Shown one piece after another: positions 1,559-19,313 of a stretch of 32,000 nucleotides of DNA (positions are counted from its first letter, which is position 1; the number at the start of each line of letters is the position of its first letter). Both the position numbers and the translations under genes were made by a program. The stretch spans positions 8,365 to 40,364 of the forward strand of contig CAYSGH010000018.1 of the NCBI GenBank assembly GCA_964430505.1, read 5' to 3'. The DNA is from an uncultured Akkermansia sp. (lineage in GTDB: Bacteria > Verrucomicrobiota > Verrucomicrobiia > Limisphaerales > UBA9464). Under the pieces are notes generated by a model. That model searched no databases, was not told the origin of the DNA, and saw only the letters and a program-made list of their open reading frames with translations.

Positions 1559-2529
1559 CGCCCCTCCTGCCATCCCCCGCCGGCGCTTGGATCGCCGCCG
1601 CGCTCGCCCTGGCCGTGACCGTGTCCGCCCTCGGTCAGGAGGCGGCTCCCGCTGCTGCCGCGCCGGAGGCGGTTGCCGCCGCCGCTGCTGCTGCCGCCGC
1701 TGCCGCTGTGGCCGCTGCCCAGGACGCCGAGGAAGGTTCCGAGGAGGACGGCCCCGCCGAGGATGAGCCCGCCGCAGCCTCCACCAACGGCGCCCCGACG
1801 CTGTCCGTGACCGGCTCCACCAACGCCCCCACCCACTCCGTCTCCGGGACCAATGCCCCGGCACGCCGCACCTCGCGCCGCTCGTCCCGAAGGCCCGAGC
1901 GCTCCGGCATCTCCGACTGGCGCCCGTCCAGCCGGTCCTCGTCCACGTCCAGCAAGGCCGCCGCCACGAATGGCCCCGCCTCGTCCGACTACGCCTACTT
2001 CCAGCTCGTCAACGATCGGAACATCTTCAACCCCGCCCGCGTCCCCAACCGCCCCGACCGTCCCAAGTCCCCCGAGACGCGGCGCACGCCCATGGTCGAG
2101 TCCCTCTCCCTTGTGGGGACGCTGCGTTACGAGAAGGGCATCTTTGCCTTCTTCGACGGCACCCGCTCCGAGTTCCGCAAGGCCCTCAAGGAAGGGGACA
2201 CGGTGGGCGGGCATCGCATCCTGTCGGTCACGGATTCCACCGTCCGTCTCGTCGTCCAGGATCGTGCGGTGGACCTGAAGGTCGGCAACCAACTCCGCCG
2301 CGAGGACGAGGGCGAGTGGACCCTCGCCTCGGGCGTGACCTTGGGTGCGTCGTCGTCCTCCGGCGGCTCGGGTTCCTCGAATTCGCCGTCCTCGTCGAGC
2401 AACACCGCGTCCGCCTCCTCCCAGTCTTCCAATGCCTCGTCGTCGTCATCCTCCGGGTCCTCCGGGGGCGGCGCCGAGGAGATCCTCCGGCGCCTTCGGG
2501 AACGTCGCGCCCAGGAGACCAAGCAATGA
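1555..2529 (+). CDS. PilP/GspC-like secreted protein with long low-complexity regions
   Basis: Signal peptide (AWIAAALALAVTVSALGQ). Has an Ala run, an acidic patch, an Arg/Ser-rich segment and a DRNIFNP motif. A beta-rich core (LVGTLRYEKGIFAFFDG...LKEGDTVGGHRILSVTDSTVRLV) resembles PilP / the GspC HR domain. Ser/Gly-rich tail. Lies directly upstream of the secretin. Confidence 0.5.
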   Translation: MTPLLPSPAGAWIAAALALAVTVSALGQEAAPAAAAPEAVAAAAAAAAAAAVAAAQDAEEGSEEDGPAEDEPAAASTNGAPTLSVTGSTNAPTHSVSGTNAPARRTSRRSSRRPERSGISDWRPSSRSSSTSSKAAATNGPASSDYAYFQLVNDRNIFNPARVPNRPDRPKSPETRRTPMVESLSLVGTLRYEKGIFAFFDGTRSEFRKALKEGDTVGGHRILSVTDSTVRLVVQDRAVDLKVGNQLRREDEGEWTLASGVTLGASSSSGGSGSSNSPSSSSNTASASSQSSNASSSSSSGSSGGGAEEILRRLRERRAQETKQ

Positions 2530-4235: not shown

Positions 4236-4301
4236 GACGGACCACCCCAGATGATCCCGCGCCCGGCATCCCCCCATTCCCGCACCCTGATGTTTCCCCC
4301 C

Positions 4302-5597
4302 ATGAATCGCCTTGCACAACGCGCCTCCGCGATCCTTCTCGCCGCATCCATGGCCGCGCCCGCCCTCGCCCAGTTCCAGGGCTTTGGCGGCGGGGGCGGC
4401 GGCACCCAACGCCGGGCCGGCACGGGCTCCGGCGCCACCCGGGAGTACCCCAACAACACCGAGGTCGGCGACGCCATCATCTCCTTCGACCCCGAGACCC
4501 GTAAGATCATCGTCATCACGGACGAGGACACGAACCTCCAGATCAAGGACGTGATCACGAGCCTCGACAACCCGCGCCCGCAGGTGCTCATCAAGGTGGT
4601 CTTCCTGGAGGTCACCCACAACGACTCGTCCGACATCGGCGTGGAGGGCGGCTACACGCGGCAGCTCGGCAACACCGGCACCGGCAGCATTGCCAACGCC
4701 TTCGGGGCCTCCGCCCTGTCCTCCGCCGCCACGTCCTCCGTCCCCAACGTCCTGGGCCAAAACGTCCAGAACATGCTGCCCGTGCCGCCCGGAGCGGGCG
4801 TGTACCAGGTCCTGGGCTCCGACTTCCAGGCCACCCTTCGCGCCATTGCCCAGGCCGGCCGCGCCGAGATCCTCTCCAGGCCCTCCATCCTCGCCCGCAA
4901 CAACCAGCCCGCCACCATCTCCCTCGGCCAGCAGGTCCCCCTCGTCTCCAACACGCGCTTCGACGCCATCAACGGCCAGATCAACACCGTCTCCTACCAG
5001 AACGTCGGCATCATCCTCCGCGTCACCCCCTTCATCACCCCCGACGGCATGGTGGAGATGATCGTGTCCCCGGAGACGTCGTCGCTGGCCGAGCGAACGC
5101 AGTGGGTGCCCATCTCGCGCGACGCCCTCGCACCGGTCGTCAACTCCCGCCTCGCCGACACCGTCGTCGTGGTGCCCGACGGCCAGACCGTCGTCATCGG
5201 CGGCCTGATGCAGAACCAGATCACCGAGTCCGAAAGCAAGGTTCCCTACCTCGGCGACATCCCGTGGCTGGGGAACGCCTTCAAGCGGAAGCAGAAGTCC
5301 AACATCAAGACCGAGCTCATGATCTTCCTCACCCCCATCGTCATCCCCGCGCCGTCCCAGCTCGCGGGCATGACCGCCGAGGAACGATCCAAGGTCCTCC
5401 TCCGGCCCAAGTCCCTGCCGCAAATGCAGCTCGAGAACCTGGTGGACCAGCTCCCCGACAAGTCCTCTGACAAGTCCTCCGACAAGAAGCCCGCCAAGAA
5501 GGCGTCGGCGGTTCCCGATGCACCCCAAGCCCCCAAGGCTCCCGTGGTCCCGGCGGACCCCAAGCTGAAGGCCGCTCCGGCACCCGCCCGTCGGTAG
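4302..5597 (+). CDS. Secretin pore-domain protein (GspD/PilQ C-domain) with its own signal peptide
   Basis: Signal peptide MNRLAQRASAILLAASMAAPALAQ; an alternative ATG lies at 4251. Classic secretin C-domain motifs are present: RPQVLIKVVFLEV, LRAIAQAGRAEILSRPSILARNNQPATISLGQQVP, VPDGQTVVIGGLM, VPYLGDIPWLGNAFK, ELMIFLTPIVI. Lys/Pro-rich tail. Confidence 0.85.
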   Translation: MNRLAQRASAILLAASMAAPALAQFQGFGGGGGGTQRRAGTGSGATREYPNNTEVGDAIISFDPETRKIIVITDEDTNLQIKDVITSLDNPRPQVLIKVVFLEVTHNDSSDIGVEGGYTRQLGNTGTGSIANAFGASALSSAATSSVPNVLGQNVQNMLPVPPGAGVYQVLGSDFQATLRAIAQAGRAEILSRPSILARNNQPATISLGQQVPLVSNTRFDAINGQINTVSYQNVGIILRVTPFITPDGMVEMIVSPETSSLAERTQWVPISRDALAPVVNSRLADTVVVVPDGQTVVIGGLMQNQITESESKVPYLGDIPWLGNAFKRKQKSNIKTELMIFLTPIVIPAPSQLAGMTAEERSKVLLRPKSLPQMQLENLVDQLPDKSSDKSSDKKPAKKASAVPDAPQAPKAPVVPADPKLKAAPAPARR

Positions 5598-6685: not shown

Positions 6686-7252
6686 TCACGCATCGTTGCC
6701 CGGCCGCAGCACGTACACCGACGGGTAGTTGGTCCGCCACGACCGGTCGTCCATCCCGTAGCCCGTGAACCATTCGCGGCCCTCGTACCGGAACGCCGCA
6801 TGGTCCGGCGTGTGCAGGCTTTCCGGGATCACCCGGTGCACCAGCACCGCCGTCCGGACCGACGCCGCGCCGCGGGCCCGGCACAAGGTGGTCAGCTCCG
6901 CCAACGTGCGTCCGGAGTCGCAGATGTCGTCCACCACCAGCACGTCCCGGCCGGTCAGGTTGAGGTCGAGGCCCTCCACCTGGAGGTGCGAGGCCATCTG
7001 GCCGTTCACGCCGGCCTCGTATCCACGGCATCGGCAATACGTGGCCTCCACCGAGACCGGGATGGCCTTGAGCAAGTCGGCAAAGAAGAACACCGCCCCC
7101 CTCAGGACGCACAACGCCAGCACCTGCTGGCCGCCGCGAGCCAAGACGTCCCGCGCCCAAGGCGTCAGCTCCGCCGCCACCCTGTCTACGCCGCACTGAA
7201 CCGCCTCCGCCGTGAACACCTCGCTATAATGGTCCGGAACGTTTCGCGTCAT
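6686..7252 (-). CDS. hpt: Hypoxanthine(-guanine) phosphoribosyltransferase
   Basis: Type I PRT PRPP-binding motif VLVVDDICDSGRTL, LRGAVFFFADL, and a C-terminal GYGMD motif. Collinear with 6-oxopurine PRTases. I prefer the MTRNVP start; the ORF extends to 7279. Confidence 0.85.
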   Translation of the reverse strand: MTRNVPDHYSEVFTAEAVQCGVDRVAAELTPWARDVLARGGQQVLALCVLRGAVFFFADLLKAIPVSVEATYCRCRGYEAGVNGQMASHLQVEGLDLNLTGRDVLVVDDICDSGRTLAELTTLCRARGAASVRTAVLVHRVIPESLHTPDHAAFRYEGREWFTGYGMDDRSWRTNYPSVYVLRPGNDA

Positions 7253-8306
7253 CCACGTCCTCCCTTCTTGAGATTCCATAAAGCCCCCCGTCCATGCCCT
7301 TGCCGGGCCAGTTCACCTGGTCCACGCCCAGGTGCCGCGCCAATCCCAACAGCACGGGGTTCAGCAGCAGCTCGGCCGCCAAGGGCGCGACCTCCACCCG
7401 TCCGGGCAACGGCACCCGCCGTGCCGGCAGCCCCGCGCCGGCCAACACCTCCTCCGCCCGGCGCGCGAGCGCGCAGTCGCCCAGCACCCACACCGGCTCC
7501 GGACGGGCCATCAACTGCTGGAGGTGCCCGTGCGCCAACGCCAGCAAGTCCACCACGCGCGGCCCTCGCCAGTACAACCCCTCCACGAACTTTGCCACCA
7601 CGTTCTCCGCGCACCCGGACAACCCGTCGCCCGTGGCCACCACGAATCCGTCCCGATGCGCGTCCAGCTCGGATCCGATGGCCTCCAGCATGCGTGCCGG
7701 CCACGGGCTGGATGCCCACGCATCCAGCTCATCCACGAGCGTGCTCGACGGGGGGAGCCGGTTCCCATCCACCGAGGCCGCCAACCGCCACGCGGCGGCA
7801 AACCCGCACAACGGCCCAACCAACCGGACCAAGGTTGAGTACTCCTCCTCCAACGGGAACCGCTCCATGCGGCATCCCTCGGCCGAGAGGCGTTGCAGCC
7901 ATCCCGCGCGATCCCCGCGTCCCGCCCGCTCCTGGCCCTCCACCGTCGAGGCCGTCGCCAGCACGACGGAACCGAAGAGCCCCCGCCTCGCGAGGGCCAG
8001 CCGGGCGTTCGGCGCCAGGCCTTGGCTGAAGACCACCAGCGTCCGGTCCCGGCTCGACGGTCCCGGAAACCCCGGATCGAGGAAGGCGGACAACGGCTCG
8101 AACCAGGCGGGCACCGCCGTGTGACGCCGAAGCAACGCCACCAAGTAGCGCGCGTGCGCCTCGGAGCTTCCCACGCCGGTGGCAAGGACGCCCCCCTCGC
8201 AGGGCCGCCAGCCCTCGGCCAAGGGCGACACCAGGAGCCCGCGGGCCAACGGCCATGCCTCCTCCGCGCGGCGTCCCAGCAACCCATGTCCCTTCGCGTC
8301 CATCAC
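7224..8306 (-). CDS. Hypothetical protein, probably a two-lobed SIS (phosphosugar isomerase/binding) fold
   Basis: SIS-like motifs: ATGVGSSEAHARYLVALL followed by LVVFSQGLAPNA, then a second lobe FVVATGDGLSGCAENVV. No closer family was recognised by eye. Tightly packed between the GCH II-like gene and hpt. Confidence 0.45.
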   Translation of the reverse strand: MMDAKGHGLLGRRAEEAWPLARGLLVSPLAEGWRPCEGGVLATGVGSSEAHARYLVALLRRHTAVPAWFEPLSAFLDPGFPGPSSRDRTLVVFSQGLAPNARLALARRGLFGSVVLATASTVEGQERAGRGDRAGWLQRLSAEGCRMERFPLEEEYSTLVRLVGPLCGFAAAWRLAASVDGNRLPPSSTLVDELDAWASSPWPARMLEAIGSELDAHRDGFVVATGDGLSGCAENVVAKFVEGLYWRGPRVVDLLALAHGHLQQLMARPEPVWVLGDCALARRAEEVLAGAGLPARRVPLPGRVEVAPLAAELLLNPVLLGLARHLGVDQVNWPGKGMDGGLYGISRREDVDDAKRSGPL

Positions 8307-8309
8307 CCG

Positions 8310-9896
8310 TCACTCCGACACGTTGCGATCATCCAGGAAGATCCACTTGTGCACCTCGATCCCATGCGCGTTCAAGGCCTCCGCATACTCCTTCTTCCGC
8401 ACCAGGCTGGAAGGGGAGTTCATCACCATCTGGATCTTGCCCGTCGGGTAATGGTGCCGCACCAACCGCATGATCGAGTCGTAGTCGCGGCTGTCGTAGC
8501 CCACGCCGAGCCTCCGATACGACTCGTCGCTCGAAAACGACATGCCTTGCTCCGTCAGCATCCGGTCCGTGGCATGTGCCCCGAACCCCGCCCCGCGGCC
8601 GTCGAAGTACAGGAGGAAGACCGCGCCCACGCCGTAGTGGACGATGTGTTGAACCGACTTCTTGAACTTCACCCGGTTGTCCATGCTGACGAGGGGAAGG
8701 CGATTGAACAGGGACTCGCTTTGCACGCGGATGACGGCGACGTCGTACAGCAGCGGCTTCCCGTACGTCAGCACCACCATCTCCTGGCTGGTCACGATGT
8801 CGAAGTACACGTGGACCCGAAACCAGTAGGGCGTCGTCAGCAGCTCCGTCACGGGCGATCCCGGGCGCGTTTCCTTGTGGCGCGCGAGGTTGCCCGGGTC
8901 GATCCGCACCAGGAGCCGGTTGCCCCGGATCACGTAGTAGTCCCGCACCAGGGGCGACTCCCCTTCCATGAACCGCTCCACGGGCGTCTCCCGGAACACC
9001 TCGTGGAAGCGCTCCTCGGACAGCACGATCTCGCCGTCCACGGGCTTGACCGGCAGGAAGTAGGAGGCCGCGTAGATAAACCGTTGCGCTCCCGGCACCG
9101 CATGCGGCCGGAATGGCATCACCGGCTCCGGCGGCAGCGCCCGCCTCACGCCGTCCGTCGCCTGCTTCAACTGATGCCCCGAGTCCGCCTTCGACGCCAG
9201 GTACGCCACGTTGAACGGCGATGGCTCGAACTCCAGCGCCTCCGTCCCGGCCACGGACAACCCCTGCGTCGTCAACGCGGACACCTTGTCGGGGTTGTTC
9301 GTCAGCAGCACGAACGGGGCCTTCACTCCCAGCAGGTGGCACACGTCCGCGACGTCGTCGTAGCTCCGATGATCCTTCCTCAGCCCCATGCAGCGGTACG
9401 CCTCGAACGTCGAGATCTGGTCGTGCGACGACTGCACCAGCATCCGGTCCCGAGCCTTCGCCACGTAGCCCACGCCGCGCCCCTCCTGCATCAGGTAAAA
9501 CAAGATCCCGCTCCCCTTGCGCTGGATCACCTCCAACGCCCCCTCCAACTGTTGCACGCAGTCGCAGTCGCATCCGCGCAGCGTCTCGCTGGTGATGCAC
9601 GAGCTGTGGATCCGCGCATACAGCACCGCCGCGCCCGTGACTTCGCCCGCCGCCAGCGCGATCACGTACCCCTTGTGGATCACGTCCTGGAACACATGCG
9701 CCGTGAAGTGGCCCATCCGCGTCTCGACCCCGCAGCTCGCGAGGAACAAGGTCGTGCCGCGCAACGGCCGGTCCTCCACCCCGGCGCGATTCAGGACGGA
9801 TCCTGCCGGGTGCTGCAATTGCTCCACCAACTGCCGCAAGACGTCCGGCAACCGCACCACCGGGTGGCCTTCATCCCTTGGCTTCGCCGCATTCAT
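8310..9896 (-). CDS. Tandem-domain GTP cyclohydrolase II-like protein (intact N-terminal domain plus Cys-less C-terminal copy)
   Basis: Domain 1 has the zinc-site pattern IHSSCITSETLRGCDCDC, plus FYLMQEGRGVGYVAK and LLTNNPDKV, matching RibA. Domain 2 (VQSESLFNRLP...LLYFDGRGAGFG...MVMNSPSSLVRK) is a diverged repeat without the Cys triad. The start is uncertain (9896, 9920 or 10052); the 774 aa ORF reaching 10634 runs into the divergent receptor gene. Confidence 0.75.
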   Translation of the reverse strand: MNAAKPRDEGHPVVRLPDVLRQLVEQLQHPAGSVLNRAGVEDRPLRGTTLFLASCGVETRMGHFTAHVFQDVIHKGYVIALAAGEVTGAAVLYARIHSSCITSETLRGCDCDCVQQLEGALEVIQRKGSGILFYLMQEGRGVGYVAKARDRMLVQSSHDQISTFEAYRCMGLRKDHRSYDDVADVCHLLGVKAPFVLLTNNPDKVSALTTQGLSVAGTEALEFEPSPFNVAYLASKADSGHQLKQATDGVRRALPPEPVMPFRPHAVPGAQRFIYAASYFLPVKPVDGEIVLSEERFHEVFRETPVERFMEGESPLVRDYYVIRGNRLLVRIDPGNLARHKETRPGSPVTELLTTPYWFRVHVYFDIVTSQEMVVLTYGKPLLYDVAVIRVQSESLFNRLPLVSMDNRVKFKKSVQHIVHYGVGAVFLLYFDGRGAGFGAHATDRMLTEQGMSFSSDESYRRLGVGYDSRDYDSIMRLVRHHYPTGKIQMVMNSPSSLVRKKEYAEALNAHGIEVHKWIFLDDRNVSE

Positions 9897-10070
9897 CGGC
9901 CCCACGCACGCAGCCCCCATGCCATCCGCCCGCCTCGCGTTTCCCGCTTCCCGCTTCCCCACTCTGGCCCGCCGGTTGCTTTGCTGGACGATGCCCGTTC
10001 CAACGGGTCTGCCGGGCCACAATTCGCCCGGCGGGTGAAACGTGGTGTCCATAATTAGCCTGCCTGCGCA

Positions 10071-12452
10071 ATGAAGACCCTCCTGCTCCCTGCATCGCTC
10101 GCCAGCCTGACGTTCTCGGCTGGCGTCCTCGCCCAGACCACCAACGCCGCCCCGTCCAACCTCGACCGCATCGTCGTCGAGGGCATCCCCTTGGAGGAGC
10201 AGGTGGTGCCAACGGTGCGCCCGTTCAACTCCGTGTACGGCACCGACCGCCCCATCCTGGAGACGCCCCGAAACGTCACGATCATTTCCCGGGAGCAGCT
10301 CGACGCGATCAACATCTACGACGTCCGGGACTTTTCGAAGCTCACCTCCAGCTCCTACACCCGCTCCAACTTCGGGGCTCCCACCACGCCGGACATCCGC
10401 ACGCAGATCGCCGACACGTTCGTGAACGGCATGCGCCAAGGCCTCACGTCCAACGGCAACGGCCTCCCCGTCAACTTCAACTCCGTCGAGTCCGTCAACA
10501 TCGTGAAGGGGCCTGCCTCGTCCGTGTACGGGCCGTCGCAGTACGTGGGCGGGTACGTGGACCTGATCACCAAGCGCCCGTTCTACGACGGCTACCACGG
10601 CGAGGTCTCCTCCACCTTCGGCATGTTCCAGCAACGCCGCTGGACGATGGACGTCGGCGCGCCCTTGCCCGGGAAGACCGCGGCGTGGCGCCTGAGCTAC
10701 TCCGGCGAGGATTCCGGCAGCTACTACTACGATGGCTTCCGCAAGTCCCAGGCCGTCTATGGAGCCCTCTCATGGCAGCCCAACGAGAAGTACGACGTCT
10801 TCTTCAACAACGAGTGGTACTGGGCCAACTACACCGAGAACTTTGGCGTCAACCGCCCCACGCAGCAGCTCATCGACAGCGGCCTGTACCAGACGGGCGT
10901 CAACAACAACCCCGCGCCGGACTTCGCCGCCTATCCCTTCGGCTACGTCGATGCCTCCGGGACGCCCATCTCCTTCTCCAACATCAACGTCCCGGCTGGC
11001 GCGGCCGCTCCCACGTCCGACCCCCAAAACAGCCGCTGGGTCACCTCCGGCTTTCCGGTCGTCAACCGGATCGACCCGGGGCCGCTCGTGAAGCTTGACC
11101 GCCGCCGCCGCCTCCTCCGCCCCGGCGACGACTCCGAGGGCTTCTCCTACAACGCACAGGCCGTCCAGACGTACCACGCCTCCGAGTCCGTGGACATCGC
11201 CAACAACACGCTCTTCCGCTACGTGGACCGCCAGACCGAGTCCTCGTACTACTACTCCGAGATCATCGATCCCTCGTGGTCCTTCGAGAACCGCACCGAG
11301 GTCCGCATCAACCTGGAGAAGCACTCCATCAACACCGGCGCCGACGTCCGGTACCAGTACGTCCGCGCCTTCAACGACTTCTTCACCGAGCCCGCCAACG
11401 TGTGGGACCTGTCCCGCGACCTGTCCTACATCAACATCCGGAACTCGGTGAACTTCCCCAACCCGTTCACGTCCGTTCCCGTGCCCGGCCACCCCGGACG
11501 CTACTTCACCCCGGACAACGGGGACTCCGGCGTCTCGCATTCCCTGTTCACCGGCCCGTTCTACCAGCATGATTTCCGCATCACGGACCGATGGTCCCTG
11601 CTGGGCGGCGGGCGCCTGAACATCGTCAGCCTCGACTATTCCGACCCCGCCAAGTTCCTGCCCGGCGACTCCGTGACGCTGGGCCTGCCCAGCGCCAATG
11701 CGTCCACGGTGTACAAGTTCACGCAGCGGCTGACCGGGTACTTCACCTATAACTGGTCCCAGAACCCCGTTGGTTCCGTCGGCAATGGCGGTGGCTACAC
11801 GACGGCCGGCCTGCGCAACTTCGCCAATCGCAACCTTCGCAACGAGGCCCAGCTCTTCGAGGTGGGCTCCAAGGTCTCATTGTACGACGGGAAGCTCTTC
11901 CTCGGCGGCGCCCTCTTCGAGCAGACCCGCGCCGACGCCCAGCTCAATCGGTCCGTCGTCGAGTTCAACACCCGCGGCTTCGAGGTCGAGGCCAACTACC
12001 AGCCCACGCGCGAGTTCTACCTGACGCTCGGCTATTCCTACCTCGACTCCACCGTGAACCAGCCCCAGTTCGACGTGGGCAACACCACCCTGACCTCGCC
12101 CGGCGACCGCTTCTTCGCCATGTCCGGCGACTCCTTCCGACGGCAGGGCGTGCCCACCCACCTGGTCAACTTCCTCACCACCTACCGCATCTACAAGGGC
12201 CTCGGCACCTCCGCCAACGTCGTCTTCACCTCCGAGATCAACAACAACGTCGCCGGGACGCTCGTCATCCCCAACCAGTACACCCTCGACCTCACCGTCT
12301 TCTATACCGCGCCGCGATGGGACGCCCGCGTGATGCTCCTCAACATCACCGACGAGAAGAACTGGTCCGCGCCCAACGCCGTGTATGGCAACGAGTCCAT
12401 CGTCGCCGACTTGCCGTTCCGGCTCGAAGGCCGCGTCACCATCAAGTTCTAG
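10071..12452 (+). CDS. TonB-dependent outer-membrane receptor
   Basis: Signal peptide, plug-domain motifs (LDRIVVEG, NIVKGPASSVYGPSQYVGGYVDLITKRP), a long beta-barrel with aromatic-rich alternating strands, and the terminal ...RVTIKF with C-terminal Phe. Confidence 0.9.
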   Translation: MKTLLLPASLASLTFSAGVLAQTTNAAPSNLDRIVVEGIPLEEQVVPTVRPFNSVYGTDRPILETPRNVTIISREQLDAINIYDVRDFSKLTSSSYTRSNFGAPTTPDIRTQIADTFVNGMRQGLTSNGNGLPVNFNSVESVNIVKGPASSVYGPSQYVGGYVDLITKRPFYDGYHGEVSSTFGMFQQRRWTMDVGAPLPGKTAAWRLSYSGEDSGSYYYDGFRKSQAVYGALSWQPNEKYDVFFNNEWYWANYTENFGVNRPTQQLIDSGLYQTGVNNNPAPDFAAYPFGYVDASGTPISFSNINVPAGAAAPTSDPQNSRWVTSGFPVVNRIDPGPLVKLDRRRRLLRPGDDSEGFSYNAQAVQTYHASESVDIANNTLFRYVDRQTESSYYYSEIIDPSWSFENRTEVRINLEKHSINTGADVRYQYVRAFNDFFTEPANVWDLSRDLSYINIRNSVNFPNPFTSVPVPGHPGRYFTPDNGDSGVSHSLFTGPFYQHDFRITDRWSLLGGGRLNIVSLDYSDPAKFLPGDSVTLGLPSANASTVYKFTQRLTGYFTYNWSQNPVGSVGNGGGYTTAGLRNFANRNLRNEAQLFEVGSKVSLYDGKLFLGGALFEQTRADAQLNRSVVEFNTRGFEVEANYQPTREFYLTLGYSYLDSTVNQPQFDVGNTTLTSPGDRFFAMSGDSFRRQGVPTHLVNFLTTYRIYKGLGTSANVVFTSEINNNVAGTLVIPNQYTLDLTVFYTAPRWDARVMLLNITDEKNWSAPNAVYGNESIVADLPFRLEGRVTIKF

Positions 12453-12482
12453 TGTAGCCTGCGGCACGGCAGCCCGACACGG

Positions 12483-12516
12483 GGCGAGCCAGGCGCATCA
12501 CCCCGCTTGGCTCGCC
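12483..12516 (+). terminator. Strong stem-loop 30 nt downstream of the receptor gene (13 bp stem, 8 nt loop, no T tract)
   Basis: GGCGAGCCAGGCG-CATCACCC-CGCTTGGCTCGCC, paired by hand with one G-T wobble. No U-run follows, so this may be a partial terminator, a processing site or an attenuator rather than a canonical intrinsic terminator. Confidence 0.4.
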
Positions 12517-12571
12517 AGCCTCGGCCGCCGCTTCTCGCCCCTCGATCCCCGCTCCCCGTTGATTTCCCCTC

Positions 12572-13603
12572 ATGCGCCTCGTCATTGCCCTCTGCGCCCT
12601 GGTGCTGTCCCTCCCGGCCAGCGCCGCCCCGCCCATCCAGCCCAAGGTCCTCGTCGTCTCCACCTTTGAGATCGGCCAAGACACCGGCGACCGCCCTGGC
12701 GAGTTCCAGTTCTGGGTGGAACGCGAGCGCCTGACCCAGTCCTTGGCGCTTCCCAACCTTTCGCGCCCCCTGCGCCACGGCACCAACGGCGTGTTCGGCT
12801 TTGTTTCCGGCACCACGGTGCGCGCCGCCACGGAGGTCCTGGCCCTGGGCCTCTCGCCCGAGCTGGACCTCACCCGCACCTACTGGCTCATCAACGGCAT
12901 CGCCGGGGTCGATCCGGAGGATGCCTCCGTGGGATCCGCCGCCTGGGCGCTGCATGTCGTCGATGGCGACATTGCCTACGAGATCGACTCGCGCGACGTG
13001 CCGCCGTCGTGGCCCTACGGACTGGTGCCCATCGGGGGCAAGAAGCCCAACGTCATCAACGAGGACGCCACCTGGGCTCCGAAGCCCATGGCGTGGACGC
13101 TCAACGCGGGCCTCGCTCGTTGGGCCTACGGCATCACGCGCGACATCCCCATCCCGGACTCCGACGCCGCCAAGGCTCACCGCGCCCTCTACACCGCCCA
13201 TCCGGCGGCACAAAGGCCCGCGTCGGTCCTGCTGGGCGACAGCCTCGGCTCCTGCCGCTACTGGCATGGCCCCGGCATGACCCGCTGGGCCAACGACTGG
13301 GCCCGCCTGCATACGGCCAATCGCGGCAACTTCGTCATGACCAACATGGAGGACCATGGCATTGCCCACGCCCTCCAGCAGCTTGCCCGCATGCGCAAGG
13401 TGGACTTCAACCGGGTCCTCTTCCTCCGTACGGGCTCCAACTATTGCACCCCCGCCCCGGGCAAGGCCGCCGCCGACTCCATGACCGAGGAATACTCCGG
13501 CATGTTGCCCGCCCTCGAGGCCGCCCATCGCGTGGGCAGCCGGGTCGTCCATGAGATCATCGAGCACTGGCCCCGGCACGAGGCCGTCATTCCTTCCCAG
13601 TAG
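12572..13603 (+). CDS. NUP-family protein (annotated 'purine nucleoside permease' family; PNP/hydrolase-like fold), secreted
   Basis: Signal peptide MRLVIALCALVLSLPASA. The family-typical N-terminus KVLVVSTFEIG...GEFQFWVER and the overall ~340 aa length match what I recall of the NUP (PF06516) family. This assignment is from memory, not a search. Confidence 0.65.
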   Translation: MRLVIALCALVLSLPASAAPPIQPKVLVVSTFEIGQDTGDRPGEFQFWVERERLTQSLALPNLSRPLRHGTNGVFGFVSGTTVRAATEVLALGLSPELDLTRTYWLINGIAGVDPEDASVGSAAWALHVVDGDIAYEIDSRDVPPSWPYGLVPIGGKKPNVINEDATWAPKPMAWTLNAGLARWAYGITRDIPIPDSDAAKAHRALYTAHPAAQRPASVLLGDSLGSCRYWHGPGMTRWANDWARLHTANRGNFVMTNMEDHGIAHALQQLARMRKVDFNRVLFLRTGSNYCTPAPGKAAADSMTEEYSGMLPALEAAHRVGSRVVHEIIEHWPRHEAVIPSQ

Positions 13604-13620
13604 CGGCCACCTCTCCCACG

Positions 13621-15054
13621 ATGAGGCCCATCGAGTGCATGAAGCCCATGAAATCCATGAAGCTCCTTCTCGCCCTGTGCGCGTTCCTCGCTTCCGTCGC
13701 CATGGGGGCCGACTTCGCAGCCCGGTTCGAGTCCTTCAAGACCAACGCGAGCCCGTTGGACCTCTACCGCCTGCTCTATGCGATGCCCAAGGCGGGCGAC
13801 CTCCACCACCACGCTGGCGGCTGCTGGCGCATGGAGGACCTCTACAACGTCGCCACCAACGTCACGCGCAACGGCGGCAACCGCTTCTACACCCGCATCA
13901 AGGCGGGCACGTGCCCCGACGACGCCACCCCATGGCGTCGCTTCACCACCATCGCCGCCTTCACCTGGAAGGATCTCACGCCCTGCCAGCAATCCGAGTA
14001 CGTGCCCCTCGATGAGCTGCCTCCGGGCCTGCGCGCCGAGTTCATCGACTCCCTCCGCCTCGACAAGCCGGGCGAGGGCCGGCAGGAGTTCTTCGAGGAA
14101 ATCTGGCCTCGGCTCGGCGCGCTCGGGCGCAGCATCGACGTCTTCCTTGAAATGACCGTCGAGACGATGAGGCGCTACGGGGCCGAGGGCGTGCGCTACC
14201 TCGAGCCCCAGACCATTCCCATGGGGATGCTCGATGGGTCCGGGGCCGTCGTGGACGCCGAGGAGTTCCACCAACGCCTGGCGCGGCGCCTCGCCCAGCC
14301 CGACGCCCTCGCCACCGGCGTCTCCGTCCGATGGCAAATCGTCGTCATCCGCTTCCTCCCCACCGCCGAGCGCGCCATCGAGGACGCCTATGACTTCATC
14401 TCCCGGCATCGCGACCTCTGGGTGGGCATCAACATGGCCGGGCGCGAGGACAACGACAAAGGCCACCCCCGCCGCTTCCTGGACGTCTATCGGCGCATGC
14501 GCCTCAAGCACCACGGCGTGGGCCTCGCCATCCACGCCGGGGAGGTGGACGAGCCCAACCCCCACATGCGTGACACCCTCCTCCTCGGCGCCACGCGCCT
14601 CGGCCACGGCAACAACGTCCTCACCGATGACGACCTCGTCCTCCACCTCCGTTCCCGCATCGCCTTCGTCGAGATCAACCTCGTCAGCAACCTGGTCCTC
14701 GAATACGTCTCCGACTATCGCCAGCACCACTTCGCCGAGATGCTCCGCACCGGCATTCCCTGCGGCCTCTCCACCGACGATTCCGGCATGTGGGACTCCA
14801 ACATGACGGACGAGTACATGACCGCCGTCCGGGAGTTCAACCTGACGTGGGAGGAGCTGGTGCGCTGCGGGCGATCCTCGCTGGAGTGGTCCTTTGCCGA
14901 GCCGGCCCTCAAGCAACGCCTGCTGGACGCCTACGACCGCGACGTCCGCGCCTTCGAGCAACGGTTCGCCGGCGACGCATGGCAGCCGCTCCTGCAATCC
15001 GTGAAGCCCGTGTCCTACGGCTTCGCCAAGCGCCGATGGAACATTGCGTTCTGA
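13621..15054 (+). CDS. Secreted adenosine deaminase family protein (ADGF/long ADA type)
   Basis: Signal peptide MKSMKLLLALCAFLASVAMG; possible starts at 13621, 13648 and 13657. Metal and catalytic motifs are present: DLHHHAGG, AIHAGE, RLGHG, STDDSGMW. Confidence 0.85.
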   Translation: MRPIECMKPMKSMKLLLALCAFLASVAMGADFAARFESFKTNASPLDLYRLLYAMPKAGDLHHHAGGCWRMEDLYNVATNVTRNGGNRFYTRIKAGTCPDDATPWRRFTTIAAFTWKDLTPCQQSEYVPLDELPPGLRAEFIDSLRLDKPGEGRQEFFEEIWPRLGALGRSIDVFLEMTVETMRRYGAEGVRYLEPQTIPMGMLDGSGAVVDAEEFHQRLARRLAQPDALATGVSVRWQIVVIRFLPTAERAIEDAYDFISRHRDLWVGINMAGREDNDKGHPRRFLDVYRRMRLKHHGVGLAIHAGEVDEPNPHMRDTLLLGATRLGHGNNVLTDDDLVLHLRSRIAFVEINLVSNLVLEYVSDYRQHHFAEMLRTGIPCGLSTDDSGMWDSNMTDEYMTAVREFNLTWEELVRCGRSSLEWSFAEPALKQRLLDAYDRDVRAFEQRFAGDAWQPLLQSVKPVSYGFAKRRWNIAF

Positions 15055-16043
15055 TGATCCCCGGCTGGCATCCCATGCGCCCATTTGCTCCGGCATTCGT
15101 CCCGGCGGCCGCGGCCGCTGTCGGCCTCATTCTTGCCTCCGCGCGCTCCGCTGCGGCCGGCACCATCGTCTTCCTGTCCGACTTCGGGCTGAAGGACGGG
15201 GCCGTGTCCGCCATGAAGGGCGTCGCCCATGCCGCCGATCCGGGCCTGCAACTGTTCGACGTCACCCACGAGGTTCCGCCGTTCAACGTGTGGGAAGGAG
15301 CCTTCCGGCTCGCCCAAGCCGCGCCCTACTGGCCTGCCAACACCGTGTTCGTCTGCGTCGTCGATCCCGGCGTGGGCACCGACCGCCTCCCCGTCGTCCA
15401 TCGCACGCGGTCTGGCCATGTGTTCGTGGGGCCGGACAACGGGCTCTTCACGCTCGTGGACGACGTGCTTGGCCATGACCGCTCCTACGTCATCGACGCC
15501 TCGCGCCATCGCCTGCCGGGCTCGGACGCCAGCTACACGTTCCACGGGCGCGACCTCTTCGCGCACGTCGGAGCGCGCATTGCATCGGGCCAGCTCACGC
15601 CCGCCGATGCGGGCCAACCCGCCGGGAAACCACCCGTCCGGATCCCGTACCCGGCTGCCACCTGCAAGGACGGCGCCCTCTCTGGCGTGATCCCCGTGCT
15701 CGACGTCCAGTACGGCAACGTCTGGTCCAACATCGGCCCCGACCTCGTCGAGGAAGCCGGCCTTCGCGTCGGGGATGAGGTCGAGGTGACGTTCCTCAAG
15801 GGCGGACGCCGCGTCGCGCGGCTTCGGGCGCCCTTCGTGCAAACCTTCGGGGCCGTTCCCAAGGGCAAGCCCCTCGTGTTCGTGAACTCCCTCCTGCAGC
15901 TCTCCGTCGCGCTGAACACCGACAGCCTCGCCGCCCGCTACAAGGTCGGATCCGGGCCGGACTGGTCGGTCCAGTTCAAGGCGGTGCCATCCGTCTCGTC
16001 GCCTTCCACGTCCACCCTCCCGCCCGCCAAGCCCAAGCCATGA
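15054..16043 (+). CDS. SAM hydrolase / SAM hydroxide adenosyltransferase family (DUF62; fluorinase-chlorinase superfamily) with N-terminal signal peptide
   Basis: The ATG at 15054 shares one base with the ADA stop. A predicted signal peptide (PAFVPAAAAAVGLILASARSAAAG) is fused directly to the canonical family N-terminus IVFLSDFGLKDGAVSAMKGV. Also has VDPGVGTDR, GPDNGL and TFHGRDLFA. Pro/Ser/Lys-rich tail. Confidence 0.85.
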   Translation: MIPGWHPMRPFAPAFVPAAAAAVGLILASARSAAAGTIVFLSDFGLKDGAVSAMKGVAHAADPGLQLFDVTHEVPPFNVWEGAFRLAQAAPYWPANTVFVCVVDPGVGTDRLPVVHRTRSGHVFVGPDNGLFTLVDDVLGHDRSYVIDASRHRLPGSDASYTFHGRDLFAHVGARIASGQLTPADAGQPAGKPPVRIPYPAATCKDGALSGVIPVLDVQYGNVWSNIGPDLVEEAGLRVGDEVEVTFLKGGRRVARLRAPFVQTFGAVPKGKPLVFVNSLLQLSVALNTDSLAARYKVGSGPDWSVQFKAVPSVSSPSTSTLPPAKPKP

Positions 16044-17362
16044 ACCTCTTCCAGCTCCAAGCCCACGGCACGAACGTCCGACGCGAGGTCGTCGCGGGCA
16101 TCACCACGTTCGCGGCCATGGCCTACATCCTGGCCGTCAACCCTGGCATCCTCTCCGCTGCGGGCATGGACAAGGGGGCCGTCATCACCGCCACCGCCCT
16201 CGCGTCCGCCCTGATGACGGTGCTCATGGCCCTGTTCACCAACTATCCCATCGCCCTCGCGCCGGGCATGGGCATCAACGCCTTCTTTGCGTTCTCCGTT
16301 TGCGGGGCCATGAAGGTGCCATGGCAGGCCGCCCTGGGCTTGGTCTTCTACTCCGGCCTCGTGTTCTTCCTTCTCTCCGTCACGGGCGTCCGGCAACGCC
16401 TGCTGGCGGCCATCCCGCGCGACCTCAAGATCGCCATCACCTGCGGCATTGGCCTGTTCATTGCCTTCATCGGCCTCAAGAACGGGGGCGTCATCGGTTC
16501 CAGCCCCGCCACCTTCGTCACCCTCGGCAACCTCCAGTCCCCAACACCGTGGCTCGCCCTCGGCGGACTCCTCCTCACGGCCATCCTCGTCCAACGCAAG
16601 GTCCCGGGGGCCATCCTCCTCGGCATCGCCGCCGTCACGTTGCTCGGCCTCTTCATCTCCACGACCGCACCCGACGGGTCCGCTTCCACCATCACCGCCT
16701 CGCCCAAGGCCATCGTCGCCCTCCCCGCATCCCTGTCCCCCACCTTCCTCAAGCTCGACCTTGCCTACTTCTGGCAACACCCGCGCGAATCCATCCCCAT
16801 CGTCCTCGCGCTCCTCTTCGTCGATCTCTTCGACAACATGGGAACCCTCATCGGCGTCTGTCATCGCGCCGGGCTCCTCGATGCCCAGGGCAACCTCCCA
16901 CGCATCGGGCGCGCCTTGGCCGCCGACGCCACCGCCGCCATGGCGGGCTCCACCCTCGGCACCTCCACCGTCACGAGCTACATCGAGTCCGCCGCCGGGG
17001 TCGAGGCGGGCGGCCGGACCGGCCTGACGGCCCTTGCCACGGCCGCGTGCTTCCTCCTCGCCCTCTTCCTGAACCCCCTCATCTCCATCATCCCCGCCGT
17101 CGCCACCGCCCCCGCTTTGGTCATCGTCGGCGTCTTCATGATGCAATCCATCGCCGAGATCGACCTGCGCGACTTCACGCGGGCGCTTCCCGCCGTGCTC
17201 ACCCTCCTGGCCATGCCCCTTGCCTTCAGCATCGCCGAGGGCATCGCCATCGGCATCGCCGTCCATGTCCTGTTCAACGCCGGCATTGGACGCGCCCGCT
17301 CCATCACCCCCGTGGCGTGGCTCCTCGCCGTCCTGTGCATCGCGCACCTGTATTTTCGATGA
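16040..17362 (+). CDS. NCS2/AzgA-family purine base permease (adenine/guanine/hypoxanthine)
   Basis: Family-typical N-terminus LFQLQAHGTNVRREVVAGITTFAAMAYILAVNPGIL, a polytopic hydrophobic profile and 440 aa length. ATGA overlap with the preceding gene. Confidence 0.9.
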   Translation: MNLFQLQAHGTNVRREVVAGITTFAAMAYILAVNPGILSAAGMDKGAVITATALASALMTVLMALFTNYPIALAPGMGINAFFAFSVCGAMKVPWQAALGLVFYSGLVFFLLSVTGVRQRLLAAIPRDLKIAITCGIGLFIAFIGLKNGGVIGSSPATFVTLGNLQSPTPWLALGGLLLTAILVQRKVPGAILLGIAAVTLLGLFISTTAPDGSASTITASPKAIVALPASLSPTFLKLDLAYFWQHPRESIPIVLALLFVDLFDNMGTLIGVCHRAGLLDAQGNLPRIGRALAADATAAMAGSTLGTSTVTSYIESAAGVEAGGRTGLTALATAACFLLALFLNPLISIIPAVATAPALVIVGVFMMQSIAEIDLRDFTRALPAVLTLLAMPLAFSIAEGIAIGIAVHVLFNAGIGRARSITPVAWLLAVLCIAHLYFR

Positions 17363-17367
17363 GCGAC

Positions 17368-17417
17368 GGGCGAGGGGCGGGAAGCGGGGGGCGGGAGGCG
17401 GGGGGCGGGGGGCGGGG
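17368..17417 (+). repeat. G-run tract (eight runs of 3-6 G) containing the 20-mer GCGGGGGGCGGGGGGCGGGG
   Basis: Counted by hand: G runs at 17368-70, 17374-77, 17379-81, 17386-91, 17393-95, 17400-05, 17407-12 and 17414-17. It starts 6 nt after the permease stop. The 20-mer at 17398-17417 is identical to 29768-29787. Confidence 0.7.
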
Positions 17418-17588
17418 AACGAGGAGCGAGGATCGGGACGTGAAAGGGTTCATGAGGAGCGTTCTATCAGGGTGCTTGCACGCCGGCTGGAGCCGGCCGT
17501 GGTCCAGGGCGCATGTTGGACGTGGCGGCGCCGATGGTAGGAAGGATGCGCATTTCAACGGCCCCGAGACGGCCCAGCGACGGCCCTG

Positions 17589-17623
17589 CCGCTCGCCGCT
17601 CACCGCTCACCGCTCACCGCTCG
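17589..17623 (+). repeat. Five tandem copies of the heptamer CCGCTC(A/G), ending 2 nt before a start codon
   Basis: CCGCTCG CCGCTCA CCGCTCA CCGCTCA CCGCTCG, then TC, then ATG at 17626. Confidence 0.8.
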
Positions 17624-17625
17624 TC

Positions 17626-18540
17626 ATGAACCCACTCCTACTTCTTCTGTCCATCGCGTTCCTCGCCTTGGGTTGCTCGGTACGTGCCGTCCCTCGGACG
17701 CGTTTTGTGGCGGTCATGGGGGCCTACAGCCCCGAGATGCAGGCCAATCGCGCCGCCATCGCGGGCAACCGTGCCCCGCTTCATGTCTGGAACCACAACG
17801 GCGTCCGCTTCGAGCACCATCGCCTGGATGGGCTGGACGTGCTGCTGTTCTCGTCCGGGGTCAGCATGGTGAACGCCGCGATGACGACGCAGCTCGCCCT
17901 GGAACGCTTCCACGTCACGCACGTCCTGTTTGCGGGCGTGGCCGGTGGCATCGATCCCGCGCGGCGCATCGGTGACGTCGTGATTCCCGAGCACTGGTTT
18001 CATCACAGCGAGGCCGTGTATGCGAACCCGCGCGCGGACGGTCCCGGGCACGTCCTGCCCTCGTACTTCAAGCCGCCCTACGAGAACTTTGGGTTCATCT
18101 ACCCGGACAATGTCAGCGTCATCCGGTCCGGCATGGACCAGCCCGCCGACGTGCCGTCGTTCCCGGCGGATTCCCGCTTGCTGGGCCTGGCGCGCGCCGC
18201 CATCGCGGATGTCCCGCCCCTGCGCTGGTCCACCAACACGGCCGCCCTCCAGGTCGGCGGGGCGGGCATTTCCGGGCCTGTGTTCATGGACAACCGGGAA
18301 TACCGCCGCTGGGCCTTCCGGGTGTGGAAGGCGGGCTGCCTTGACATGGAATCGACGGCGATCGCCCAGGTTTGCTGGGCCAACCAGAAGCCGTTTCTCG
18401 TGATCCGCAGCCTGAGCGACCTCGCAGGGGGGCAGGAGGGGATCAACGCCGCCGACACCACGGAGGTTCCCATCGCCACGCACGCCGCCGTGGTGCTTCG
18501 CGCCGTCCTGGCCCGGCTGGCCGCGTCGCCGTCGCCCTGA
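17626..18540 (+). CDS. Exported PNP_UDP_1-family nucleosidase (MTA/SAH nucleosidase- or purine nucleosidase-like), possible lipoprotein
   Basis: ATG at 17626 within long ORF 16300..18540. Signal peptide MNPLLLLLSIAFLALGC (the lipobox is non-canonical). Motifs SSGVSMVNAAMTTQLALERF, FAGVAGGI and LDMESTAIAQVCWANQKPFLVIRSLSDLAGG parallel MtnN/PNP family signatures. Confidence 0.75.
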   Translation: MNPLLLLLSIAFLALGCSVRAVPRTRFVAVMGAYSPEMQANRAAIAGNRAPLHVWNHNGVRFEHHRLDGLDVLLFSSGVSMVNAAMTTQLALERFHVTHVLFAGVAGGIDPARRIGDVVIPEHWFHHSEAVYANPRADGPGHVLPSYFKPPYENFGFIYPDNVSVIRSGMDQPADVPSFPADSRLLGLARAAIADVPPLRWSTNTAALQVGGAGISGPVFMDNREYRRWAFRVWKAGCLDMESTAIAQVCWANQKPFLVIRSLSDLAGGQEGINAADTTEVPIATHAAVVLRAVLARLAASPSP

Positions 18541-18550
18541 GTCAACGACC

Positions 18551-18573
18551 GCGCCTCCTCGTGCTGGAGGCGC
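18551..18573. terminator. Hairpin in a convergent intergenic gap (8 bp GC-rich stem, 7 nt loop)
   Basis: GCGCCTCC-TCGTGCT-GGAGGCGC lies between the nucleosidase stop (18540) and the stop of the HAD-like gene (18585). No T tract on either side. Confidence 0.4.
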
Positions 18574-18584
18574 CACCCCGCCCG

Positions 18585-19313
18585 TCAGGGAAGCGGATGT
18601 CCCAGCAGCCGCTCGGCCAAGTCGCCCAGGTCCTCCAAGGGCGCATGGCCCGCCGCGAGGTCCGGCACCAGCGACAGCACCGCCACGCAACCCGCCAAAA
18701 CCCCCGCGCGCGCATCCGCAGCGGACCCCGCGACCTTCACCACGCGTGCCCCGGTGCCCAGGTTGCATCGCCTGCGCGCCTCCTCCACTTGCCCAGGGCC
18801 AGGCCGGGGCACCAGCACCTCGTCCGCCCCCACCAGCGCATCCACCTTCCCGGGGCCACTCCATCCCACGGCGCGGATGAACGCCGCCGCCACGTCCCCG
18901 TCGAGTTCCGTGTCGATGGCGACTTGGATGCCCTGGGCGCCCAATTCCGCCATCAGCGTCTCGGCGCCAGGTTGGACACGGAGGTTGCCGGCCAACTTCA
19001 CGGACTCCATGAGCCGCATGCGAAAGTCCTCATGGACCGCCGTCACCAACGGGCGCACGACGTCCGGCGCAAGTCGTGTCTCGCCCGTCACCCACTCCTG
19101 CAAGGCCGCACGCGTGGGCAACTCCGCCAATCGAGCCACGTCGTGGTCGCCGGCGGGGAGGTCTGCGTCGGACAAGGCCGCCGCAAGGCAGGCCCGCACC
19201 CGTTCTCGTTCCGGGCACAACCCGCCGAGGAGATCGATGACGACCAGGTCGGGATTCCGGATGGAATCCGCGACGGAACGCCCTGCGGCGTCATGGGGGA
19301 CAACGGCATGCAT
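18585..19313 (-). CDS. HAD-superfamily-like protein with atypical catalytic motifs
   Basis: Motif I reads VVIDLLGGL (nucleophile Asp present, Asp+2 replaced by Leu). Motif III reads PRPGPG (Arg instead of Lys, as in the phosphonatase-like subgroup). Motif IV reads VAGSAADARAGVLAG, with the first Asp lost. Confidence 0.5.
   Translation of the reverse strand: MHAVVPHDAAGRSVADSIRNPDLVVIDLLGGLCPERERVRACLAAALSDADLPAGDHDVARLAELPTRAALQEWVTGETRLAPDVVRPLVTAVHEDFRMRLMESVKLAGNLRVQPGAETLMAELGAQGIQVAIDTELDGDVAAAFIRAVGWSGPGKVDALVGADEVLVPRPGPGQVEEARRRCNLGTGARVVKVAGSAADARAGVLAGCVAVLSLVPDLAAGHAPLEDLGDLAERLLGHPLP

Follow-up and report, generated by a model that had tools for sequence, protein, structure and literature searches.

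A 32,000-nucleotide stretch of contig CAYSGH010000018.1 from an uncultured Akkermansia sp. (assembly GCA_964430505.1), hereafter the window, carries at positions 10071-18540 six plus-strand genes that, with a probability we put at roughly 0.6, form a locus for the utilisation of purine nucleosides, with a TonB-dependent receptor (TBDR) at its centre. As read from its gene families, the locus would serve to take up nucleosides across the outer membrane, convert them to free bases in the periplasm, import these bases and salvage them in the cytoplasm. TonB-driven uptake, periplasmic dismantling and base import had been proposed in an original prediction made from the letters of this DNA, and the assigned families, the export signals of the enzymes and a conserved gene linkage now support such a scheme. 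The locus would belong to the TonB-dependent nutrient-utilisation kind, with an unreported substrate class and an apparent dismantling of nucleosides outside the cytoplasm.

The six co-directional genes that had been claimed are all intact, free of frameshifts and show the codon-position G+C pattern typical of real genes; profile searches of Pfam and NCBIfam bore out each of the six family names. In order, they encode the TBDR (10071-12452, 793 aa; Plug PF07715 and barrel PF00593), an exported NUP protein (12572-13603, 343 aa; PF06516), a long exported adenosine deaminase or ADA (13621/13639-15054, 471-477 aa; PF00962), an exported DUF62 S-adenosylmethionine (SAM) hydroxide adenosyltransferase, that is, a SAM hydrolase (15054-16043, 329 aa; PF01887 and PF20257), an AzgA/AGZA-type NCS2 purine-base permease (16040-17362, 440 aa; PF00860) and an MtnN-like lipoprotein (17626-18540, 304 aa; PF01048 at 112 bits, and TIGR01704) that resembles nucleosidases of 5'-methylthioadenosine (MTA) and S-adenosylhomocysteine (SAH). 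Are these genes tightly packed, as had been stated? This is true of the short NUP-ADA gap of about 17-35 bp, of the 1-bp overlap between ADA stop and DUF62 start (TGATG) and of the 4-bp overlap between DUF62 stop and permease start (ATGA), but not of the 119 bp between TBDR and NUP or the 263 bp between permease and MtnN-like gene. The two start/stop overlaps suggest that ADA, DUF62 and AzgA are translationally coupled.

The receptor scores 39.4 bits against the plug profile PF07715 (cut-off 23.9) and 54.1 bits against the barrel profile PF00593 (cut-off 27; Pfam). It also has the other hallmarks of its class, namely a signal peptide (MKTLLLPASLASLTFSAGVLA/QTT, ending ..VLA/QTT; a slash marks the cleavage site throughout), a TonB box ahead of the plug and a C-terminal aromatic residue (the protein ends ...TIKF, with Phe last). 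The TonB-box-like element is DRIVVEG at residues 32-38, assigned by resemblance alone. Solved TBDRs are only remotely and partially similar to this protein (best E = 1e-15). More than 1000 homologues were found at E <= 1e-20, the named ones from Opitutae/Verrucomicrobia. Pfam detected no SusD-family lipoprotein partner among the six locus genes and both flanks, and the receptor is therefore not paired in the manner of Sus systems.

Does the NUP protein transport nucleosides, as the family name would have it? The match to PF06516 is strong (324.4 bits against a cut-off of 27, with 309 of 313 profile positions covered), and no relative of the protein was found by sequence in the PDB. An AlphaFold2 (AF2) model built with 24 homologues (pLDDT 80, pTM 0.83) depicts a soluble alpha/beta protein of the nucleoside phosphorylase-I (NP-I) fold with one N-terminal signal helix, and shows nothing of the polytopic membrane protein that a permease would be. 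Foldseek places MTA/SAH nucleosidases (MTANs) at the top of the matches to this model (E = 3e-9, TM normalised to the target 0.6-0.73); AMP nucleosidase and uridine phosphorylase are also among the best matches. Because of the model and its structural matches, we take NUP to be a soluble protein of the NP-I fold (that of MTAN, purine nucleoside phosphorylase or PNP, and AMP nucleosidase) equipped with a signal peptide, and not a permease; it is predicted to act as a periplasmic purine nucleosidase or phosphorylase. The PF06516 family name, 'purine nucleoside permease', is probably a misnomer. The founder of the family, the NUP protein of Candida albicans (CaNUP), shares the Pfam family of the window protein and has been described as a transporter, in contrast to the soluble NP-I fold and cleavable signal seen in the model of the window protein. 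CaNUP allows an adenine auxotroph to grow on adenosine, yet does not confer sensitivity to toyocamycin (PMC9431476). This behaviour, we infer, is no less compatible with a nucleosidase acting outside the cell than with a permease.

One candidate detail of NUP specificity did not hold up. An invariant Asn290 was considered to occupy the position of MTAN Asp197, which would point to a preference for 6-oxopurines, and this equivalence found no statistical support. The NUP alignment matched a manually entered E. coli MtnN sequence with an hhalign probability of 0.15%, and the local pairwise alignment of NMEDHGIAH with VEMEATAIAH scored 28, against 27 ± 5 for shuffled sequence. With scores at the level of shuffled sequence, the Asp-to-Asn exchange stays hypothetical.

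The adenosine deaminase retains its zinc ligands and its catalytic Glu and His, and matches PF00962 with 114.5 bits. In the numbering of the 471-aa form, its motifs are LHHHAGG (55-61, core HHH 56-58), IHAGE (298-302, core HAGE 299-302), LGHG (321-324, core GHG 322-324) and STDD (378-381, core TDD 379-381). The equivalog model TIGR01430 was not reached (112.9 bits against a cut-off of 216.55), and we therefore assign the protein to what appears to be a divergent, long subfamily. The solved structures nearest to it, 2amx and 6ii7, are adenosine deaminases that we take to be Plasmodium enzymes. Translation from either of the two starts, 13621 or 13639, yields a signal peptide ending ..VAMG/ADF.

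The DUF62 protein matches PF01887 (SAM_HAT_N, 169.7 bits) and PF20257 (SAM_HAT_C, 60.8 bits) and carries the hydrolase-type motifs DPGVGTDR (104-111) and FHGRD (163-167); the chlorinase SalL, by comparison, has Tyr there. The Asp-Arg-His triad is, we assume, what sets hydrolases apart from halogenases. The NCBIfam equivalogs for (R)-SAM hydrolases were not reached by the window protein (133.6 against 350 and 108 against 470), and the identical 329-aa gene call exists in public collections. Export is the rule among its relatives: 101 of the 120 best homologues have a signal peptide or a lipobox, with exported members in Aeromonas, Chitinophaga, Thermanaerovibrio, Tissierella and Bdellovibrionota. 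No recurrent partner of the exported form emerged, the gene being solitary in Aeromonas, Chitinophaga and a Thermanaerovibrio-like contig; an informative gene context exists only in Opitutia. The DUF62 literature that we retrieved holds no mention of an exported form. Characterised DUF62 enzymes are reported to counter the build-up of (R)-SAM within cellular SAM metabolism (bioRxiv 10.1101/2025.08.29.672840). The window protein has the two domains and the hydrolase-type motifs in common with such cytoplasmic SAM hydrolases, the (R)-SAM repair enzymes included, but differs in belonging to a large exported subfamily and in scoring below the (R)-SAM cut-offs.

The permease matches PF00860 with 151 bits and has no NCBIfam match; its placement in the AGZA subfamily follows the JGI name 'AGZA family' borne by members of its cluster. 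Family and name both suggest transport of bases, which for the AGZA class are adenine, guanine or hypoxanthine, in line with the earlier statement that the only inner-membrane transporter of the locus is specific for them. Pfam revealed no ribose, nucleoside or methionine transporter in the locus, and for this reason the base is the predicted harvested moiety. The MtnN-like protein passes TIGR01704 (84.1 bits, cut-off 73.8), though not NF004079 (102 against 169). Aligned to 5dk6 and 4qez, it retains counterparts of MTAN Glu12, Glu174 and Asp197, within the motifs GAYSPE (32-37), DMEST (240-244) and SLSDLAG (262-268). At 304 aa including its signal, the protein exceeds solved MTANs (~230-265 aa) by an insertion of roughly 50-70 residues, and it bears the lipobox FLALG/C.

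All four soluble enzymes begin with the signature of export, that is, N-terminal Lys/Arg, a hydrophobic stretch and an AXA (small-x-small) pattern, as had been claimed for every one of them. To see whether orthologues keep it, we scored proteins from 80 related loci (described below) with a home-made rule combining hydrophobicity, charge and cleavage site. Signal-like N termini were recorded for 39 of 41 NUP, 28 of 33 ADA, 14 of 15 DUF62 and 24 of 27 MtnN-like orthologues, the last by signal or lipobox; the TBDR, as positive control, gave 61 of 80. The same rule returned 0/25 for adenine deaminase, 0/13 for unk7224, 0/8 for the HGPRT-like protein and 2/20 for the GTP-cyclohydrolase-II-like (GCHII-like) protein, three products of which are encoded next to the locus and are introduced further below. 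The share is thus 85-95% in the four enzymes, compared with 0-10% in cytoplasmic neighbours. A second count for the exported proteins was similar.

Is the association of the receptor with purine genes more than chance? An alignment of 12 TBDR sequences, searched against one genome per species, recovered 271 relatives, of which the best 80 loci were analysed; their receptors share 46-98% identity with that of the window. All are metagenome-assembled genomes (MAGs), from Verrucomicrobiota/Opitutia save a few evidently mislabelled exceptions; judging by many of the isolate names, lakes and groundwater are common sources. Neighbouring genes were located by tblastn, the queries being the window proteins plus proteins encoded in the gaps of other loci. 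At least one purine gene lies beside the TBDR in 72 of the 80 loci, and in 59 of the 63 with at least 8 kb of flank. AzgA is the commonest neighbour (44 loci), followed by NUP (38), ADA (32), adenine deaminase (27), the MtnN-like gene (26), a second NCS2 permease (15) and DUF62 (14); a guanine-deaminase-like Amidohydro_1 protein, a short ADA and an extra PNP_UDP_1 protein also occur. Independent gene calls with precomputed Pfam matches gave the same composition; in one Ca. Didemnitutus MAG, for instance, TBDR and DUF62 are followed by an opposite-strand NCS2 permease and then by PNP_UDP_1. The linkage of the TBDR to purine genes is more than chance. Conservation of the neighbourhood had been suggested as a check across genomes of the Planctomycetes-Verrucomicrobia-Chlamydiae (PVC) group; it holds across the 80 Opitutia loci despite much rearrangement, but is seen only within the class Opitutia and not across that wider group.

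More than 30 distinct gene arrangements were counted, the six-gene co-directional form of the window being one of them, and a neighbour-joining tree of the receptors resolves four types of architecture. Type I, to which the window belongs, has TBDR, NUP, ADA, optionally DUF62, AzgA and the MtnN-like gene in one direction, with a divergent GCHII-like operon. In type II, ADA precedes the TBDR and AzgA and NUP follow it, all three being encoded on the other strand, and DUF62 may or may not be present. Type III consists of adenine deaminase followed by the TBDR. Type IV has the TBDR, optionally preceded by the MtnN-like and adenine deaminase genes, then a xanthine-type permease, in some cases a guanine-deaminase-like gene, and an opposite-strand AzgA; its cytoplasmic adenine deaminase is the same conversion shifted across the membrane where periplasmic ADA and NUP are missing. 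NUP is present in 29 of 32 ADA loci, the two being neighbours on the same strand in 23 loci, and in 13 of 14 DUF62 loci, and AzgA is present in 23 of 26 MtnN-like loci. These pairings (NUP with ADA, DUF62 with NUP, AzgA with MtnN-like) fit the chain of steps proposed here.

How would such a locus work? The TBDR would actively draw adenosine-type nucleosides from dilute lake water across the outer membrane, with adenosine and the 5'-substituted adenosines SAM, MTA and SAH as candidate cargo. In the periplasm, DUF62 would split SAM into adenosine and methionine, the long ADA would deaminate adenosine to inosine, and NUP, as hydrolase or phosphorylase, would release hypoxanthine from inosine. The MtnN-like lipoprotein may free adenine from adenosine, MTA or SAH. 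Only the free base would then cross the inner membrane, through the AzgA-type permease, to be captured in the cytoplasm by the HGPRT-like enzyme; the GCHII-like protein and unk7224 may process it further. The ligand of the receptor, the substrates of the enzymes, the order of the steps and the co-transcription of the genes are what we infer from these data.

Several points weigh against the scheme. Its support is comparative only, the co-occurrence counts carry no phylogenetic correction, and the signal peptides were scored with a home-made heuristic. Being small enough for porins, nucleosides do not strictly require a TBDR, and free SAM outside the cell is chemically unstable. DUF62, originally counted as a step of the pathway, is present in the window with its motifs intact but is accessory and not core, occurring in just 14 of the 80 loci. 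As a lipoprotein, the MtnN-like nucleosidase could face outward instead of residing in the periplasm. Three well-flanked loci (L030, L036, L037) contain no purine gene within 10 kb, their TBDRs adjoining genes for an OPT transporter or for cytochrome c assembly. Finally, nothing in the locus betrays the inducing ligand, neither a regulator nor a riboswitch nor a shared operator being present.

What else could the receptor carry? It might import free bases, or purines broadly, while the exported enzymes, the lipoprotein nucleosidase above all, act on nucleosides arriving by another path, either at the cell surface or within the periplasm. The commonest partners of the TBDR do handle bases (AzgA in 44 of 80 loci, adenine deaminase in 27, a second NCS2 permease in 15), and one large clade combines the receptor with AzgA, the MtnN-like gene, adenine deaminase and a second permease, without ADA, NUP or DUF62; the lipobox of the MtnN-like protein points the same way. 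We nonetheless hold this explanation to be unlikely, though worth keeping in mind: an exported enzyme that cleaves or deaminates nucleosides stands beside the TBDR in 55 of the 80 loci, NUP directly follows the receptor in many of them, and the signals of ADA and DUF62 are of the ordinary signal peptidase I (SPI) type, which points to the periplasm. To our knowledge, moreover, surface exposure of lipoproteins has not been established in Verrucomicrobia. A larger adenosine- or purine-containing cargo, such as oligonucleotides, dinucleotides of the NAD, FAD or CoA type or adenosylated cofactors, trimmed in the periplasm by nucleases or phosphatases from other parts of the genome ahead of the locus enzymes, would agree with the usual size of TBDR cargo (>600 Da) and with the handling of DNA fragments by the TonB-dependent transporter of the Bacteroides ddb locus (PMC12478041). 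DUF62, too, needs a 5'-sulfonium substrate, which implies at least one cargo beyond a plain nucleoside. The Pfam-scanned gap and flank ORFs of the related loci, however, include no exported nuclease, 5'-nucleotidase or phosphatase, the adjacent HAD hydrolase (18585-19313) has no signal in either of the two sequences scored, and no cobalamin or other riboswitch was found in the window. We consider such a cargo quite improbable.

The public annotation of the receptor, 'catecholate siderophore receptor', would make it an ordinary siderophore or metal receptor whose purine neighbours are inherited synteny without functional meaning. Weak NCBIfam matches to FoxA and heme-receptor models over the plug, and the three loci without purine neighbours mentioned above, agree with that annotation. 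The window TBDR reaches the cut-off of none of the siderophore-receptor equivalogs (FoxA, FepA, CirA; NCBIfam), however: FoxA, the best model, gives 59.8 bits where 1300 are required, and the others remain far below their cut-offs and match the plug only. Nor does Pfam find partners for siderophore uptake, such as FecR, sigma factors or periplasmic binding proteins, adjoining the window gene, and the linkage to purine genes persists through the more than 30 rearrangements, strand flips and a receptor identity range of 46-98%. An iron or metal receptor is thus already disfavoured and, in our estimate, very improbable.

Other features of the related loci concern the same receptors and neighbours. 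One MAG locus carries tandem TBDR paralogues with 69% and 50% identity to the window receptor (L009:10001-14910), and two separate TBDR-purine loci (L020 and L049) lie in the same MAG; both cases suggest that receptors are sub-specialised for different purines. A Rieske plus VanA_C oxygenase was encountered beside ADA or AzgA in six loci (L017:16133-17146, L022, L028, L052, L056 and L085:15033-16019). This oxygenase may demethylate methylated purines; the caffeine N-demethylases NdmA/B are presumably Rieske oxygenases of the same Rieske plus VanA_C kind. Some versions of the locus (L010:6660-8696 and 11037-12095; L019; L025) contain, as insertions, a protein of the S15 X-Pro dipeptidyl-peptidase family and a transporter resembling SBF (DUF4137). 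Lacunisphaera limnophila was considered as a cultured host of the locus and was ruled out, its NUP gene being solitary and away from any TBDR.

On the minus strand, a divergent operon faces the locus. Its first gene (8310-9896, 528 aa) matches PF00925 in two stretches and encodes the GCHII-like protein. Of its two GCHII domains, the first is intact and keeps the zinc-Cys motif, and the other is degenerate; the protein is probably cytoplasmic. The gene adjoins the TBDR in 19 of the 80 loci, has a length of 530 aa in the gene calls for L085 and L086, and in L042 runs together with the unk7224 gene and AzgA. The gene that accompanies it, unk7224 (7224-8306, 360 aa), has no Pfam, NCBIfam or PDB match and was co-located in 12 of the 80 loci. 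An exhaustive HMMER search assembled 435 representative clusters of the unk7224 family, some members of which are fused to GCHII, to a Creatininase domain (PF02633) or to both; a single-sequence AF2 model reached a pLDDT of 35. Third comes the HGPRT-like phosphoribosyltransferase (6686-7279, 197 aa; PF00156), kept in 7 of the 80 loci. It had been named Hpt, a designation that stands as far as the HGPRT-like family is concerned but not at the level of the NCBIfam equivalog, as TIGR01203 scores 87.5 bits against a cut-off of 150. These features point to a module in the cytoplasm whose substrate would be a purine nucleotide and which may open the imidazole ring. Because the HGPRT-like gene shares this conserved operon with the GCHII-like gene, the fate of the imported base may go beyond plain salvage.

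The 174 bp between the GCHII-like gene and the TBDR (9897-10070) presumably contain the divergent promoters. With gathering thresholds, Rfam detected neither a riboswitch nor any other known RNA across the window; at 9400-10200 there were chance-level hits only. No match to the sigma-70 consensus promoter was found in 9500-18800, where terminator-like sites numbered 5, against 3.7 ± 2.0 in shuffled sequence. A k-mer count upstream of 77 TBDR orthologues, in search of a shared operator, returned GC-rich background and words close to the start codon. The 263-bp spacer before the MtnN-like gene (17363-17625) is a lineage-specific insertion, its equivalent measuring 3-57 bp in L002, L004, L007 and L012, and may hold a separate promoter for that gene. 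The spacer includes a G-rich direct-repeat tract (17363-17432) and CCGCTCA repeats (17589-17616). A hairpin over the start codon of the MtnN-like gene, formed by a 16-nt inverted repeat, was considered and dismissed (RNA fold z = -1.04, not significant).

Downstream lie a PhnX-like HAD hydrolase on the minus strand (18585-19313), kept only in L001, and, up to 22277, genes encoding a FAD oxidoreductase (PF12831) and a MoaA-like protein. No gene for xanthine dehydrogenase or uricase was found anywhere in the window, which places the locus outside a classical purine-catabolic island. With a G+C content of 0.64-0.69, the locus is close to its flanks in a window of ~69% G+C, and horizontal transfer was ruled out on this ground. 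Elsewhere in the window, a secretin, with Secretin and GspD-like N0 domains and Secretin_N repeats, appears to be split over the adjacent plus-strand ORFs 1767-4235 and 4236-5597; this reflects either an in-frame stop or sequencing error at ~4235, or two genes.

How does the locus compare with known systems? The original prediction knew of no characterised locus of this composition, and in the full-text literature that we searched none was found that joins a TBDR to ADA, nucleosidases and a base permease. Characterised TonB-dependent uptake is known for iron chelates, vitamin B12, metals and glycans. DNA has recently been added to this list: the ddbABCDEF DNA-utilization locus of Bacteroides thetaiotaomicron combines a transporter likened to SusCD with secreted nucleases that act on polymeric DNA, and the deaminating and base-releasing enzymes lie outside the locus and were not pinned down by the authors (PMC12478041). 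As in the window, an outer-membrane TonB-dependent transporter is central to a locus for nutrients derived from nucleic acids, and signals of the SPI and SPII (signal peptidase II) types sort enzymes to periplasm or surface; in ddb, the end products are deaminated nucleobases. The Opitutia locus differs in having a classical single TBDR, without SusD partner or nuclease, and in itself encoding deaminase, nucleosidases and base permease. The Bacteroides rus (ribose utilization system) polysaccharide utilization locus encodes SusC/D, an IUNH-type hydrolase, ribokinases and a sugar permease and harvests the sugar, and RusC/D and RusNH are dispensable for growth on nucleosides (bioRxiv 10.1101/574913). 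Here, too, a TonB-dependent SusC homologue has as neighbours an enzyme that cleaves nucleosides and a permease of the inner membrane, but the Opitutia locus, with AzgA, NP-I-fold enzymes and deaminase and without ribokinase or sugar transporter, would harvest the base.

Enterobacteria likewise take up purine nucleosides, deaminate adenosine and cleave the glycosidic bond. In their scheme, nucleosides enter the cytoplasm intact, by way of the passive, TonB-independent Tsx channel and of NupC/NupG, and meet the cytoplasmic enzymes Add and DeoD; the catabolic enzymes of the Opitutia locus, in contrast, carry export signals, and only the base would be imported. The order of deaminase, NP-I-fold enzyme, hypoxanthine and HGPRT recalls Plasmodium, where ADA and then PNP act and MTA is also handled, via methylthioinosine. 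That pathway is cytosolic and eukaryotic, unlike the exported Opitutia enzymes.

A bolder version can be entertained, albeit tentatively and with more doubt than confidence: freshwater Opitutia might harvest, with the power of TonB, the 'adenosyl waste' of other plankton (SAM, MTA, SAH and adenosine) through a dedicated TBDR and break it down in the periplasm by means of exported DUF62, an MTAN-like lipoprotein, exported ADA and NUP. If so, a TonB-dependent transporter specific for nucleosides or sulfonium compounds would exist, the whole PF06516 family, fungal NUP included, would consist of secreted NP-I nucleosidases, and the DUF62 clade with signal peptides would comprise extracellular SAM-scavenging enzymes.

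For the purine-nucleoside utilisation locus proposed here, the consequences are closer at hand. A receptor family for purine nucleosides, if real, would add a new substrate class to the TBDRs and would help to explain how bacteria of oligotrophic lakes compete for nanomolar purines and for nitrogen. A nucleoside dismantled outside the cytoplasm, with the base alone imported, would be the reverse of the enterobacterial textbook scheme. The NUP family, the large exported DUF62 clade and the module of GCHII-like protein and unk7224, which perhaps processes the imported purine, would all gain a functional context.

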